Origin: an uncultured delta proteobacterium
GTDB taxonomy: Bacteria; Desulfobacterota; Binatia; Binatales; Binataceae
Assembly (NCBI GenBank): GCA_963842085.1
Contig: CAWJET010000001.1
Span: forward strand, 2,624,001 to 2,688,000
Length of the DNA stretch: 64,000 nucleotides
Direction of reading: 5' to 3'
Below, in pieces: positions 3,931 through 36,631 of the stretch. The stretch's first letter is position 1, and every line of letters starts with the position of its first letter. The translations under genes and the position numbers were made by a program. The notes below the pieces were generated by a model that saw only the letters and a program-made list of their open reading frames with translations, was not told the origin of the DNA and did not search any database.

Positions 3931-4451
3931 GCGGTAGAATCGTCTGGCGTGAGCAAGCAATCAGCCGCCGCCACGATCGCAGGAATTTCGATTGTGGCTC
4001 TCAGGAACTCAACGAGTATCTACGCCGCTACGCGCGGCAAAATCACGAATCCGGCGGCGCCAAGACTTTTGTGGCGGTGTCACCGGACGACGCTGTCCGC
4101 ATCCTTGGCTATTACACGATCAGTCCGGGCGCAATTGAATTTGCGAAGATGCCCGCCGCGATAACTCGACGACTCGGCCGGTACGAAGTGCCTGTGTTCC
4201 GTCTCGCGCGGCTAGCCGTAAACCTAACGAGTCAGGGCGGCGGACTAGGCGGCGAGATCTTGCTCGCTGCCGGCAGGCGCGCGCTCTCGGTCGCTGTCGA
4301 GGTGGGCGGGGTGGCGCTTGCAATTGACGCGAAGAGCGAACGCGCGGCCGAGTGGTACGAGCGCTTCGGTGCAGTGCGGCTGCTCGATGATCCTCTGAAA
4401 CTAGTCCTGCCATTGAAGACGATCGCTGATGCGCTCGCTTCTGCGCGGTAG
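3927..4451 (+). CDS. GNAT acetyltransferase toxin (TacT/AtaT-like)
   Basis: HDRRNFDCGSQELNEYL, ILGYYT, LARLAV..QGGGLG, IDAK...WYERFG. Confidence 0.88.
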   Translation: MSGRIVWREQAISRRHDRRNFDCGSQELNEYLRRYARQNHESGGAKTFVAVSPDDAVRILGYYTISPGAIEFAKMPAAITRRLGRYEVPVFRLARLAVNLTSQGGGLGGEILLAAGRRALSVAVEVGGVALAIDAKSERAAEWYERFGAVRLLDDPLKLVLPLKTIADALASAR

Positions 4452-4497
4452 CGGCTATTCCATCATAGAAACGGTCCCAAATCCGCCCGGATCATCC

Positions 4498-4521
4498 CTG
4501 GGTGCAGGGGTCATCCCTGCC
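4498..4521. repeat. Short palindromic repeat, family B (CTGGGTGCAGGGGTCAYCCCTGCC)
   Basis: Near-identical copies at 31202-31224 and 32776-32799. Confidence 0.75.
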
Positions 4522-4562
4522 CCGATTGCCTGCCTCGGCGCGCGCCGGTACTCTGTACACGG

Positions 4563-5267
4563 ATGTCTTCTTCTTCGACTGAGTCTTTGAATCTCGTCTT
4601 CGACGCCGACGACACGCTCTGGGATTCCAATATCCATTTTCTCGAGGCGTTTGATTTCTTCGCTGCGGCCGTCGGCGACGCCGCCCTCGGCATCTCGCGC
4701 GACGAGATTCACGCCGCCGTGCGCCGCGCCGAACTCCGGCTGATCAAAACACACGGCTACGGCCGCCGGCCGTACGTGATTGCGCTGCATCAGGCGGCTG
4801 CTGACCTGGCGCCCGCAGGTCACGACGGCTTGCGCGAGGAGATCGAGCGAATCGGTGCGCATCTGCTCGAGCGCGACTGCGCGCTGCTGCCCGACGTCGA
4901 GCCGACCCTGCACGAGCTTTCGCAGCGTCACCGGCTCCTGATCTTCACCAAGGGCCAGCGCGACGAACAGTTGCAAAAGCTCGCGCGTTCCGGACTCGGG
5001 CCACTGTTCGATCGTGTCGAGACGCCCCGCGAGAAGGACGTCGACGCCTATCGACGCCTGGTGCGCGACGCCGACCTCGATCCGTCGCTGACTTTCATGA
5101 TCGGGAACAGTCCGCGCTCGGACATCAATCCGGCCGTTGCCGCCGGTTTGCGCGCCGTTTTCATTCCGCATCCGCACACCTGGGAACTCGAGCACGAGGA
5201 AATCAATCAAGCCGGCGACCGGATTATCGAACTGACCTCCTTTCGCCGCCTGGTCGAAGTATTCTAG
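4563..5267 (+). CDS. HAD-superfamily hydrolase
   Basis: FDADDTLW motif I, TKG, MIGNSPRSDI. Confidence 0.88.
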   Translation: MSSSSTESLNLVFDADDTLWDSNIHFLEAFDFFAAAVGDAALGISRDEIHAAVRRAELRLIKTHGYGRRPYVIALHQAAADLAPAGHDGLREEIERIGAHLLERDCALLPDVEPTLHELSQRHRLLIFTKGQRDEQLQKLARSGLGPLFDRVETPREKDVDAYRRLVRDADLDPSLTFMIGNSPRSDINPAVAAGLRAVFIPHPHTWELEHEEINQAGDRIIELTSFRRLVEVF

Positions 5268-33005: not shown

Positions 33006-34835
33006 CTACTCGACCGTGACCGACTTGGCGAGGTTGCGGGGCTGATCGACGTCGGTGCCGCGTTCCGACGCGATGTGATAGGCGAGCAACTGGAGCGGTA
33101 CCGTCATCAGCACCGGCGTCAGCATCCGGTTCGTCTCCGGGACCTCGATAATTTCCCCGACGCTTTTCAGCTCGGCAGTCGCGTGATTAGTCACCGCGAT
33201 AATCCGGCCGTTGCGCGATTCGACTTCCTTGAGATTCGACATCGTCTTTTCGAACAGATCGTCATTGGGAATTATCACCACCACCGGCATCTTGTCGTCG
33301 ATAAGCGCGATCGGCCCGTGCTTCATCTCGCCCGCGGAATAACCCTCGGCGTGGATGTAGGAAATTTCCTTGAGTTTGAGCGCGCCCTCCAGCGCGATCG
33401 GGTAGTTGATGCCGCGGCCAAGGAACAGGAAGTCCTTGGCCGGCGCGTACTTGCGCGCGATATTCTGAATATTCGGCTCGCTCTCGAATATCGTTTTGAT
33501 CTGTCCGGGGATCGCGAACGCCGGCTTTAACAACTGGGCGGAGTCCGCGTCGGACAGGCGTCCCATCCGCGCCGCCAGGTGAATCGCGAACAGGTAGTAA
33601 GCCTCGAGCTGAGTGAGAAAGCATTTGGTGGTGGTGACGCTCGTCTCGGGACCGCATCGCGTGTACAACTGCGCGTCGGCCTTGCGCGCGATCGACGAGT
33701 CCACGGTGTTGGTGATTGCCAGCAGATGCGCGCCGTGCGCGCGTCCTTCTTCCATCGCGGCGATCGTGTCGGCGGTCTCGCCCGACTGCGACACGGCGAT
33801 GATCATCGTGCGGTCGTCGATCGGCGGCCGCCGATAGCGGAACTCGGATGAGTAATCGACCTCGACTGGAATCCCGGCGAGTTCCTCGATCATGAACTTG
33901 GCCACCTGCGCCGTGATCCACGACGCGCCCGCACCCAGCATCACGATTCGCCCGATCGCCGCAGGCCCGCCCGCCGGCAGCAATTCGCCTTCGAAGCGCA
34001 CCGTGGGTGAGCCTGCGTCCGCTCGCCCCGCCATCGTGTCGATCCATGCCTGCGGCTGGTCGTTGATTTCCTTGCGCAGGTAATGGCGAAAGCCGCCCTT
34101 GGTCGCGCCGACGGCGTCCCATTCGACTTGACGGGGCGCGCGACTGACCGCGGTACCGTCGAACTTCATCAGCCGCGCGGCGGTGGCCGTGACCTCGGCC
34201 AGCTCGCCGTCCTCGAGCACTATCGCGCGGCGCGTGTGTTCTAGAATCGCGGGAATATCCGAAGCGATGAAGTTCTCGCCGTCGCCCAGCCCCAGCACCA
34301 ACGGCGTCGCGGTCTTGGCGGCGACCAGCGTGCCGGGCTCGGTTTCCGACAGCACGACGATCGAGAACGAACCGCGGAGTCGCAGGACGGCCTCGCGCAC
34401 GGCCTCGGTCAGCCCGCGACCGCCTTTGAGCTTCTCCTCGATCAGGTGCGAAATGAGCTCGGTATCGGTTTCGGAGCGCAGTTTGTGCCCGCGCGCGAGC
34501 AGCTCGGTGCGCAGCTCGATGAAATTCTCGACGATACCGTTGTGGATGACTGCGACCGGGCCGGCTTTGTGCGGATGCGCGTTTTCCTCGGACGGGCGGC
34601 CGTGCGTTGCCCATCGTGTGTGCCCGATTCCGATATGGCCGCGCAGGGGCGAGTCGGCCAGTAGCAGGCGCAGGTTTTCGAGCTTGCCCTTCGCGCGGCG
34701 AATTTCGAGCTTGCCGCTATCGACGATCGTTGCGATGCCGGCCGAATCGTAACCGCGGTACTCCAGGCGGCCCAGTCCTTCGAGCAGGATAGGGTAGGCC
34801 TCGCTCGGCCCGACGTAGCCGATTATTCCGCACAT
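33006..34835 (-). CDS. glmS: Glutamine--fructose-6-phosphate aminotransferase
   Basis: MCGIIG start, LEYRGYDSAG, GHTRWATHG, SQSGETADT, GEMKHGP, PRNLAKSVTVE. Confidence 0.98.
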   Translation of the reverse strand: MCGIIGYVGPSEAYPILLEGLGRLEYRGYDSAGIATIVDSGKLEIRRAKGKLENLRLLLADSPLRGHIGIGHTRWATHGRPSEENAHPHKAGPVAVIHNGIVENFIELRTELLARGHKLRSETDTELISHLIEEKLKGGRGLTEAVREAVLRLRGSFSIVVLSETEPGTLVAAKTATPLVLGLGDGENFIASDIPAILEHTRRAIVLEDGELAEVTATAARLMKFDGTAVSRAPRQVEWDAVGATKGGFRHYLRKEINDQPQAWIDTMAGRADAGSPTVRFEGELLPAGGPAAIGRIVMLGAGASWITAQVAKFMIEELAGIPVEVDYSSEFRYRRPPIDDRTMIIAVSQSGETADTIAAMEEGRAHGAHLLAITNTVDSSIARKADAQLYTRCGPETSVTTTKCFLTQLEAYYLFAIHLAARMGRLSDADSAQLLKPAFAIPGQIKTIFESEPNIQNIARKYAPAKDFLFLGRGINYPIALEGALKLKEISYIHAEGYSAGEMKHGPIALIDDKMPVVVIIPNDDLFEKTMSNLKEVESRNGRIIAVTNHATAELKSVGEIIEVPETNRMLTPVLMTVPLQLLAYHIASERGTDVDQPRNLAKSVTVE

Positions 34836-34965
34836 GATGGTTCGCTCCTTTCCCTGCAAACGCAGGGAAGGTTACAGAGTTGTTCCGACGCACACAGACG
34901 GAGCGAAACGATAGCCAAATGATTCTGTCAGGAGAGTTTAGAAAATCACGTCAGAGCAGGATGCT

Positions 34966-35120
34966 CTGCCACTGGAGGCGTTTTTTGTCGCGCGGTCGCC
35001 CGCACGGTTTGTTCACTACTCGCCTCTATCGACTGTGGAGCCGGGAAGCCATCCGCCGAATCTTTCGATACTGCTTCCACCTCGTCAACTCATGCGATGC
35101 GCATGAGTCCTGGCGCTACT
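34966..35120 (-). ncRNA. glmS ribozyme (GlcN6P-activated self-cleaving riboswitch)
   Basis: Minus strand reads UAGCGCCAGGACUCAUGCG-cau-CGCAUGAGUUGACGAGG...AUCGAA-aga-UUCGGCGGAU..CUUCCCGG; P4 GAGGCG/CGCCUC with a GCGA tetraloop stem; lies 5' of glmS. Confidence 0.95.
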
Positions 35121-35209
35121 CTCGATTGTCGTCTTCTATCGCTTCGACCGTCACCTCGTTCCGATGATTATTTCTTTTCAGGAGACTTGGTTCAAGCTAC
35201 GTGATGACA

Positions 35210-36631
35210 TCAATCATGCTTCTTGCGCCGCAGGTTGCCGTCGGGGCTGTCGTTGTGGCGCTTGCGCCAGGTTGCCATCCAGCCGGACTTTTCGCGCTGC
35301 GGGTGGTGCGACATCACGAGCGCGCCGTCGGGCACCTCGCGGACGATCGTCGTTCCTGACGCCACGTACACGTCGCTGCCGACTTTCACCGGCGCGACCA
35401 GTTGCGTATCGCATCCGACCATGCAGCGGTCGCCGATCTCCGTGTGATGCTTGTCGTAGCCGTCGTAGTTCACGGTTATGACGCCGCATCCGATGTTGGT
35501 GTCGGCGCCGATTGTGGCGTCGCCGAGGTAACTCAGATGGCTGGCCTTGGTGCCGCGTCCGATGCGCGCCTTCTTAGTCTCGACGAAATTGCCAATCCGG
35601 TTGTGGCCGGCGAGTTCGGTGCCGGCGCGCAGGTTGGCGAACGGGCCAATTTCGGAGTCCTCGCCGATCACGCAGTCCTCGGCGCGCACGCCCAGCTTCA
35701 GATGGCATCGCGGGCCAATCGTCACGTTGCTGAGCCATGCGGTGCCGTCGATTCGCACGCCCTCGCCGAGCTTGCACGCGCCGAGAATCTGGACGTTGGG
35801 GCCGATCACGCAGTCGCGCGCGATTTCCGCCTGCTCCGAGATGTAGGTGCATGCGGGATCGACGAGCGTCACGCCGGATTGCATCAGTTTTCGGTTAACG
35901 GCTGCACGAATTTCCGCTTCCATATTTGCCAGCTCCTCACGCGAGTTGATGCCGGCGAATTCCGCCGGGTCATCAGCAACCCACGTTTCAATTCTTTCGC
36001 TACGCGCGCGCGCGATCGCAACGATATCGGTCAAGTAATACTCATCCTGGGCGTTGCCCGGCTTCAGTTCCGCAATCGCGGACCGGAGCAGGGCGCAATC
36101 GACCAAATAGCAGCCGGTGTTGATTTCCTTGATGGCGCGCTCGGCGGGCGACGCGTCGCGGAACTCGACGATTTTCTCGACCTTGCCGCCGGCGTCGCGC
36201 ATCACGCGGCCATAGGCGGCGGGATCGTCGAGAATGATACTGATGAACGAGAGCTTTGCGCGGCGCTTTCGATGTGCGTCGAGGAAGGCGCGCAGGGTTG
36301 ACGACTTGATGGTGGGCATGTCGCCGTAGGTGATCAGCACGTCACCGGTGAAGTTGGCGGGGAGCCGATCGAGGGCGCATCGCGCGGCGTCGCCGGTGCC
36401 GCGCTGCGGCTCCTGGAGCGCGAATCGCGCGTTCGGGGAGTTTACAGCGGCTGCGACTTCGCGCGCCTGGTGGCCGACGACGACGATGATTGGATCGGCG
36501 TCGATCGCGGCGACGGCGCGAACTGCGCGCGCGATCATCGGTTCTCCGCCAAGCTCGTGCAGGACCTTGGCGCGCTTCGAGCGCATCCTGGTCCCTTTGC
36601 CCGCGGCAAGGACGATCGTGGCGACGCTCAT
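35210..36631 (-). CDS. glmU: Bifunctional UDP-GlcNAc pyrophosphorylase/GlcN-1-P acetyltransferase
   Basis: LAAGKGTRM, GTGDA, YGD, EINTG, EYYLTD, GNFVETK, HLSYLGDA, NYDG. Confidence 0.97.
   Translation of the reverse strand: MSVATIVLAAGKGTRMRSKRAKVLHELGGEPMIARAVRAVAAIDADPIIVVVGHQAREVAAAVNSPNARFALQEPQRGTGDAARCALDRLPANFTGDVLITYGDMPTIKSSTLRAFLDAHRKRRAKLSFISIILDDPAAYGRVMRDAGGKVEKIVEFRDASPAERAIKEINTGCYLVDCALLRSAIAELKPGNAQDEYYLTDIVAIARARSERIETWVADDPAEFAGINSREELANMEAEIRAAVNRKLMQSGVTLVDPACTYISEQAEIARDCVIGPNVQILGACKLGEGVRIDGTAWLSNVTIGPRCHLKLGVRAEDCVIGEDSEIGPFANLRAGTELAGHNRIGNFVETKKARIGRGTKASHLSYLGDATIGADTNIGCGVITVNYDGYDKHHTEIGDRCMVGCDTQLVAPVKVGSDVYVASGTTIVREVPDGALVMSHHPQREKSGWMATWRKRHNDSPDGNLRRKKHD

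Follow-up and report, generated by a model that had tools for sequence, protein, structure and literature searches.

A glmS ribozyme with a putative promoter of its own between glmU and glmS of Candidatus Binatus

The glmU-glmS locus and its ribozyme

The window examined here is the whole stretch of 64,000 nucleotides (nt) at G000:C1:2624001-2688000, taken from a 100%-complete, 4.93-Mb genome in two contigs. Its minus strand carries glmU followed by glmS, and the spacer between these two genes holds a glmS ribozyme preceded by a predicted promoter. The features which define the locus are as follows, in the direction of transcription.

35210..36631, minus strand: glmU, 473 amino acids (aa), bifunctional UDP-N-acetylglucosamine diphosphorylase / glucosamine-1-phosphate acetyltransferase (NCBIfam TIGR01173, 525 bits, cut-off 367)
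35167..35195, minus strand: predicted sigma-70-type promoter TTGAAC-17-AATAAT (consensus scan, 9/12 matches)
34966..35128, minus strand: glmS ribozyme RF00234 with P1, P2, P2a, P3, P4, P4.1 and the conserved core (full-length model match)
33006..34835, minus strand: glmS, 609 aa, glutamine--fructose-6-phosphate transaminase (NCBIfam TIGR01135, 773 bits, cut-off 418)

The window was compared by cmscan with all 4227 Rfam families and gave a single match, RF00234 glmS at 35128-34966 on the minus strand, with 76.1 bits and an E-value of 1.1e-15. The gathering score of this family is 37 bits, and the match spans model positions 1-167 of 167, untruncated. The whole genome contained exactly one RF00234 match (E 2e-17). 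A first-pass annotation, made from the letters alone, had described a complete glmS ribozyme at this place, and the Rfam search confirmed it at full length; all the motifs it had listed were present on the minus strand. Judged by its sequence, the RNA is a genuine glmS ribozyme under selection, with a match far beyond chance.

The ribozyme begins 82 nt past the glmU stop codon (TGA, 35212-35210, minus strand), and the end of the match, 34966, lies 130 nt ahead of the glmS start codon, ATG at 34835. Its position between the two genes was thus as first described, as was its host, a bacterium outside the Firmicutes. The host is an uncultured soil diderm, Candidatus Binatus (Binataceae, Binatota), a genus which NCBI taxonomy places within Candidatus Binatota. 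Relatives of the window GlmU, with 85-96% identity, include proteins of Candidatus Binatus and Binataceae. The genome encodes both BamA (607 bits) and LpxC (244 bits), which marks the host as a diderm making lipid A. Further upstream, on the opposite strand, are xerC and hslU.

Core, predicted cut site and covariation of the helices

The elements of the ribozyme could be read one by one on the minus strand.

35116..35117, minus strand: predicted scissile bond A35117 (-1) / G35116 (+1) (position in the Rfam alignment)
35117-35106, minus strand: core motif AGCGCCAGGACU (sequence read)
35108-35100 / 35096-35088, minus strand: P1 ACUCAUGCG/CGCAUGAGU, perfect over 9 base pairs (bp) (sequence read)
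35087-35080, minus strand: motif UGACGAGG (sequence read)
35078-35073 / 35049-35044, minus strand: P2 GGAAGC/GCUUCC (sequence read)
35068-35065 / 35059-35056, minus strand: P2a UCGA/UCGG (sequence read)
34999-34996, minus strand: GCGA loop of P4.1 (sequence read)
34969..34972, minus strand: GUGG, 3' strand of the P3-loop pseudoknot with CCAC at 35038-35035 (covariation)

In the core, AGCGCC, GACGAGG and UCGGCGGAUG agree letter for letter with the Rfam consensus, and UAGCGCCAG was invariant in 51 of 51 aligned family rows. The bond A35117|G35116, predicted earlier as the point of cleavage, agrees with the Rfam alignment.

A covariance model trained on 20 Binatus sequences recovered the RNA in 36 of 78 glmU-centred loci and in all 20 loci taken from other genera. 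Base pairs were counted for the Rfam helices and the P3-loop pseudoknot in an alignment of 71 sequences, 56 of them distinct, from 12 genera. Among the 56 distinct family sequences 99.2% of 2128 pair cells were paired, and compensatory changes were found in 16 of 38 pairs (81 cells). None of 500 shuffles reached the observed values of pairing or compensation, and partners slid by 1-3 columns gave 29-40% pairing. As this alignment was fitted to a model, it leans towards pairing, but the slid controls, together with the number of pair types, speak against such an artefact. The nested pairs of P1, P2, P2a, P3, P4 and P4.1 were compensatory in 15 of 34 cases, each helix being 97.7-100% paired, and P2a showed no variation among family sequences. 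All four pairs of the CCAC/GUGG pseudoknot, which we take to be the one named P3.1, were 100% paired in the 56 distinct sequences, with one compensatory change from C-G to U-A. The expected core pseudoknots P2.1 and P2.2 lie in invariant sequence.

Distribution of the ribozyme

The ribozyme was found in 34 of 36 other genomes of the genus. An even draw of Binataceae contained it in 68 of 151 genomes, belonging to 12 of 30 genera, and within a genus its occurrence was nearly all-or-none (31/32, 11/11, 9/10 and 5/6 against 0/17, 0/13, 0/7 and 0/7). It was absent from all 24 genomes of twelve other families of the class, and from all 150 genomes of a draw from the GTDB phylum, the host's own genome excluded. 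Within its phylum the ribozyme was thus limited, among the genomes searched, to a single family and to a part of that family. Wherever the flanking sequence of a ribozyme locus was long enough, glmS lay downstream, the exception being a degenerate orphan copy, L121, described below.

The same model matched in 60 of 101 genomes from the phylum of a Lachnospiraceae metagenome-assembled genome (MAG) and in 32 of 151 genomes, including G334, from the phylum of an Acidimicrobiia MAG. The latter count shows that the ribozyme is not rare outside Firmicutes, so less weight falls on this point: the host is indeed no Firmicute, but the novelty is smaller than the first-pass annotation had implied.

Three observations were made on unusual copies within the family. 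Firstly, one Binataceae genome holds a second, orphan ribozyme, L121 (G157:C14, 333-490, plus strand), with scores of 52 bits (Rfam model) and 90 bits (Binatus model). The core reads UAGGGCC instead of UAGCGCC, the -7..-2 strand is mismatched, and the 5-kb contig carries neither glmS nor glmU; this copy is probably either a duplicate in decay or a piece that belongs to another strain. Secondly, the match in L117 (G165:C3, 4062-4305, minus strand; 87 bits with Rfam) is 234-244 nt long, with about 80 nt inserted in the P1 loop. Thirdly, the ribozymes of L112, L115, L116, L117 and L120 are 266-356 nt from the glmS start, compared to 115-125 nt in Binatus, with GC-rich hairpins between.

Origin of the ribozyme

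In ribozyme-less Binataceae glmU and glmS are 20-150 nt apart, and GlmS is 72-80% identical to that of the window. The glmU-glmS order, first taken to be specifically proteobacterial, turned out to be ancestral in the host's class, and glmU adjoins glmS in three of five class outgroups.

A family tree of GlmS (48 rows, LG+G4 quick) was built with eight Binatus rows kept, leaving out L086 and L110, the latter a duplicate of L076. It contained one clade of 16 rows wholly without the ribozyme, and a second clade (SH-aLRT branch support 98) of 23 rows with the ribozyme and three without it (L064, L080 and L095). Hence 23 of the 24 ribozyme-bearing rows fell into one clade, while the remaining one, L105, stood unresolved at the base, and the tree requires at least four changes. 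No RF00234 match at E<=1 was found in L064, L080 or L095. The glmU-glmS spacers of L080 and L095 measure 20 and 28 nt, which together with the missing match points to clean loss. L064 (4390-4922) has a ribozyme-less glmU-glmS spacer of 534 nt, with a possible open reading frame of 123 aa (4453-4824).

A wider tree was computed from the first 400 residues of GlmS in 75 rows, among them 47 of the 49 ribozyme-linked GlmS of two other phyla (two were too short in the locus). Here Binataceae formed one split (SH-aLRT 100), and Binataceae plus four of the five ribozyme-less class relatives formed another (SH-aLRT 99). Both splits leave out all 47 foreign ribozyme-linked GlmS, which are 38-51% identical to that of the window. 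Identity between ribozyme-bearing and ribozyme-less GlmS was 0.73 over the first 50 residues and 0.69-0.92 elsewhere, and windowed identity showed no N-terminal mosaic in GlmS. By these trees GlmS is vertically inherited and the gene native. Since only 20-150 nt separate the two genes in ribozyme-less relatives, the glmU-glmS pair is probably the older and the RNA an insertion into it. The sequences suggest that a module of promoter plus ribozyme probably entered in, or close to, the basal lineage of a subclade of Binataceae, the native glmS being kept, and that it was later lost in a few lineages.

Alternatively, the ancestor of Binataceae, or a still older one, may have possessed the ribozyme, with repeated losses afterwards, which is a real though lesser possibility. 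It agrees with the basal place of L105, with the three losses which are required within the ribozyme-bearing clade in any case, and with the occurrence of clean deletions. Nevertheless, the sister clade lacks the ribozyme in 16 of 16 rows, and given its absence from the twelve other class families and from the phylum draw, an origin before the family would need many more losses.

The predicted promoter and possible read-through from glmU

In the predicted promoter the -35 hexamer TTGAAC (35195-35190) and the -10 hexamer AATAAT (35172-35167) are separated by a 17-nt spacer, and the whole begins 15 nt past the glmU stop codon. From its position we infer a transcription start near 35160. With the pattern TTGnnn-17/18-nAnnnT and at least 8 of 12 positions as criterion, a promoter was matched in all 39 distinct upstream regions of Binatus, 28 of which reached 9 of 12. 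The -10 hexamer was AATAAT in 36 and the -35 hexamer TTGAAC in 29 of the 39, with a freely varying spacer sequence, and in 35 of the 39 the -10 element ended 47-51 nt ahead of the cut site. Other genera had a match in 31 of 35 distinct regions. In eight loci (L024, L034, L037, L041, L042, L046, L047 and L052) the ribozyme lies 0.8-2.9 kb after glmU, and the predicted promoter still goes with the ribozyme. Judging from this conservation, the unit of ribozyme and glmS is provided with its own promoter.

The first-pass annotation had proposed that cleavage chiefly splits a bicistronic mRNA, leaving a stable glmU half and a degraded glmS half. The closeness of the ribozyme to glmU speaks for such an arrangement, as does the position of glmU 0.1-3.7 kb upstream in most ribozyme-bearing genera. 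Moreover, the consensus scan found no terminator-like site between glmU and the ribozyme, so that read-through from glmU is possible. It is not the conserved arrangement, however: the promoter is kept in all Binatus regions, even where glmU is far removed, and the genus group of L112, L115, L116, L117 and L120 has no glmU within about 4 kb upstream of ribozyme and glmS. The proposal was not supported as worded, and that the ribozyme acts mainly within a bicistronic transcript appears unlikely, if far from negligible; bicistronic control would be at best secondary to a start at the dedicated promoter.

Two further observations concern this region. In the eight loci named above, other DNA of 0.8-2.9 kb splits glmU from the unit of promoter, ribozyme and glmS. 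In many Binatus species (e.g., L045 at about 4440-4460, L033 and L031) the 17-nt promoter spacer is an inverted repeat, CGCTCG..CGAGCG, which could be a repressor operator or a mere mutable hairpin; the corresponding spacer of the window, 35189-35173, is not an inverted repeat.

Proposed mechanism

We consider it highly probable that the 5' leader of glmS in Candidatus Binatus holds a functional canonical glmS ribozyme-riboswitch, with its own promoter, an RNase J route of decay and an origin by insertion, taken jointly. Transcription would start at the sigma-70-type promoter past glmU, with some read-through from glmU. When glucosamine-6-phosphate (GlcN6P) is abundant, it would be bound by the RNA, which by its family membership is expected to cut itself at A35117/G35116. 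The products of GlcN6P-dependent cleavage by glmS ribozymes are a 2',3'-cyclic phosphate and a 5'-OH. The cut would remove a leader of about 43 nt with the triphosphate end and a Shine-Dalgarno-like element, and the glmS mRNA left with a 5'-OH would be degraded in the 5'-to-3' direction by the RNase J of the genome.

RNase J, for which the first-pass annotation had suggested a search, is indeed encoded: a 566-aa frame at G000:C2:693370-694998 matched TIGR00649 with 464.2 bits (cut-off 400). The genome also has genes for RNase Y (699 bits) and RNase E/G (497 bits). In the family as a whole, 145 of 151 genomes and 28 of 30 genera had RNase J, irrespective of the ribozyme. Degradation of the 5'-OH product by RNase J1 is described for B. 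subtilis in passages of two papers (PMC3997798, PMC10099748).

Several points weigh against this explanation. Firstly, RNase J is equally frequent in ribozyme-less genera; being present regardless of the ribozyme, it is a permissive older background and not specific evidence. Secondly, gain is not cleanly separable from early presence, given the basal L105, the number of changes required and a tree which is that of a gene and not of species. Thirdly, a donor search among 19 ribozymes from the phylum of the Acidimicrobiia MAG gave no close relative, and the Binatus-trained model scored 47-78 bits on the ribozymes of that phylum against 121-204 bits within the family. Fourthly, the tallies take in unpublished genomes: G018, G023 and G103 in the genus/class and family counts, in addition G077, G101, G118 and G130 in the RNase J census, and G338, G355, G385, G457 and G485 in the tally for the phylum of the Acidimicrobiia MAG. 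These genomes are absent from alignments, models and trees, and dropping them would shift each count by a few genomes at most and change no conclusion. Finally, one study counts five cases in Gram-negatives among more than 450 known glmS ribozymes, not one of the five verified, and reports two candidates from Fusobacterium to be inactive in vitro under the conditions tried (PMC10099748).

The last point would favour a conserved element which no longer cleaves itself, or cleaves without consequence, and serves only as a structured leader or ligand-sensing riboswitch, but we regard this as very improbable in view of the core motifs agreeing with the Rfam consensus, the invariance of UAGCGCCAG, the maintenance of all helices by compensatory change in 12 genera, and the fact that the sole copy with a changed core, L121, is an orphan without adjoining glmS.

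Comparison with known systems

The glmS ribozyme is a known RNA family, and Binatota is a lineage in which, in the literature searched, it has not been described. The present case extends the family to a new lineage, where it has a promoter of its own and a small number of additions at its periphery. It resembles the glmS ribozymes of Bacillus subtilis, B. anthracis and Thermoanaerobacter tengcongensis in belonging to RF00234, in the A|GCGCC cut context and in the core motifs. It also shares with them P1-P4.1, the P3-loop pseudoknot and the position in the glmS 5' leader, and an RNase J gene is present in the genome. It differs from them in its host, a diderm of the candidate phylum Binatota, and in a conserved Shine-Dalgarno-like element carried by the leader which cleavage would remove. 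The B. subtilis ribozyme unit follows glmM, whereas the unit described here lies downstream of glmU. Control of glmUS by GlmY/GlmZ-RapZ in Enterobacteria is similar in the order of glmU and glmS and in feedback of GlcN6P on the glmS mRNA, but here the control is proposed to act in cis by the ribozyme. Searches of the 100%-complete genome for GlmZ (RF00083) and GlmY (RF00128) gave no match, in line with the earlier view that these RNAs are not the system used here.

The glmS ribozyme is described as a feature of many Gram-positive bacteria in parts of reviews (PMC5473149). A literature search, the coverage of which left out primary phylum censuses and the Rfam species list, returned no paper pairing 'Binatota' with 'glmS'. 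Binataceae, which are diderm, abundant in soil and equipped with all three of RNase J, RNase Y and RNase E/G, lend themselves as a natural test case for the route from ribozyme to RNase J outside Firmicutes. Relatives with and without the ribozyme on the same native glmU-glmS pair make up a comparative system for gain and loss of a cis-regulatory RNA independent of its gene.

Conserved additions flanking the ribozyme

The end of the ribozyme had first been put at 34966. This is correct for the Rfam model, but the conserved RNA continues on both sides, in the 3' direction to a hairpin at 34968-34952 and a strand at 34937-34932, and in the 5' direction to the promoter at 35195-35167. The additional elements are the following.

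35151..35157, minus strand: Shine-Dalgarno-like GAGGUGA in the leader, about 35-41 nt ahead of the cut (conservation)
35118..35123, minus strand: 5' strand of the putative helix P0, GAGAGU, positions -7..-2 (RNAalifold, 31 Binatus sequences)
34952..34968, minus strand: hairpin CAGAGCA-UCC-UGCUCUG directly 3' of the pseudoknot strand, followed by ACGUGAUUUU (covariation)
34932..34937, minus strand: 3' strand of P0, ACUCUC, within the invariant AAACUCUCC (RNAalifold and pair counts)
34847..34871, minus strand: hairpin CCUUCCCUGC-GUUU-GCAGGGAAAGG (single-sequence fold; kept in 31 Binatus leaders)

P0 is a predicted long-range helix of 6 bp with its 3' strand some 30 nt beyond the ribozyme. In 68 of 72 distinct family sequences, positions -7..-2 were matched over all 6 bp by a Watson-Crick complement in the 75 nt that follow the pseudoknot strand, mostly at a distance of 28-34 nt from that strand, and of 55-62 nt in a single genus group. 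For three control hexamers taken further upstream, a complement was found in 7, 7 and 19 of the 72, and shuffled downstream regions gave the P0 complement in 3.8% of trials. Two compensatory variants occur, AAGAGU/ACUCUU in L103 and GAAAGU/ACUUUC in L122. The exceptions are a G-U wobble in L106 and one mismatch in each of L014, L042 and the degenerate orphan L121. The support for P0 is real but thin, since both of its strands are nearly invariant. Among the ribozymes of two other phyla a similar complement was found in 0 of 19 and 3 of 30, that is 3 of 49, against 0-3 per set for controls, and the upstream hexamers show no conservation there. A single nucleotide 5' of the cut is generally considered enough for a glmS ribozyme, and that those directly ahead of the cut should take part in a conserved pairing is an unexpected addition to the known architecture. 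In L134, L148 and L149, from the phylum of the Acidimicrobiia MAG, we observed UAGGGGA at about -13..-7, with UCCCCUA some 45-75 nt beyond the ribozyme, which suggests that helices closing flank to flank may arise independently in other lineages in a different register.

It is possible, if speculative and quite improbable, that the Binataceae ribozymes carry an extra lineage-specific output module, with P0 as a clamp making up an expression platform operated by cleavage. Cleavage would then cut the covalent link on one side of P0, so that the CU-rich strand is released and the leader with its element resembling a ribosome-binding site is removed. This could give a second outcome beside 5'-exonucleolytic decay, either a refolded leader lowering translation or an exposed entry site for RNase E or RNase Y. 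Apart from this, promoter and ribozyme seem to have entered a native glmU-glmS pair without their gene; if true, this would be among the few documented instances in which a riboswitch moved alone.

The hairpin at 34968-34952 was compensatory in all six pairs tested, with 97.4% of cells paired in 51 sequences. By eye, the ribozymes of other phyla seem to be followed by similar hairpins, so that this may be a widespread element which the Rfam model lacks. The consensus scan labelled this hairpin terminator-like; an intrinsic terminator was rejected, as the U run starts 6 nt past a stem of 6-7 bp.

In the leader, AACGAGGTGA was nearly invariant in Binatus, and most other genera had, by eye, a GGAGG-like purine run at the same place. 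Stabilising Shine-Dalgarno-like elements protect mRNA in Bacillus, and by analogy GAGGUGA could protect the 5' end of the uncut mRNA. A leader peptide GUG...UAG ending on the cut site was considered and rejected, since its GUG shares bases with the Shine-Dalgarno-like motif and relatives have 2-nt indels which destroy the frame.

Closer to glmS, the 3' arm of the hairpin at 34847-34871 extends over the two leading G of GGAG, the ribosome-binding site (34848-34845). Single-sequence folds were compared for the uncut RNA (35160-34815) and the cut RNA (35116-34815). After cleavage ACUCUC was unpaired in the fold (probability of being unpaired 0.95), and the ribosome-binding site stayed in its own local hairpin in both states (0.35 uncut and 0.41 cut). 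Folding thus gave no support for a release mechanism in which ACUCUC pairs with the ribosome-binding site as an anti-Shine-Dalgarno strand. The minimum free energy fold of the window further contained a second long-range duplex of GAAGCGAUAG (35145-35136) with CUAUCGUUUC (34914-34905), which was rejected; by eye it is broken without compensation in L038, L041, L036, L054, L023 and L028. At 34914-34886 the window has a variable hairpin of the type CGCUC.../...GAGYG, the sequence of which shifts between Binatus species while pairing is, by eye, apparently kept.

Occurrence in public sequencing runs

Word matches to the locus were found in 24 public sequencing runs from soil, rhizosphere, peat and sediment, 23 of them recorded as RNA, with word shares of 0.06-0.10. 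Four runs, X1, X2, X3 and X10, were compared at 88% likeness and gave short Logan contigs of 129-235 nt over 34932-35146. These are 90-95% alike to the window and therefore come from relatives and not from the window species. The contigs of X1, X2 and X10 span the cut site; such contigs carry no ends, strand or level, and the libraries may hold DNA. Those of X1 and X10 stop at 34949 and 34946, just past the hairpin that follows the pseudoknot strand, where strains vary in sequence.

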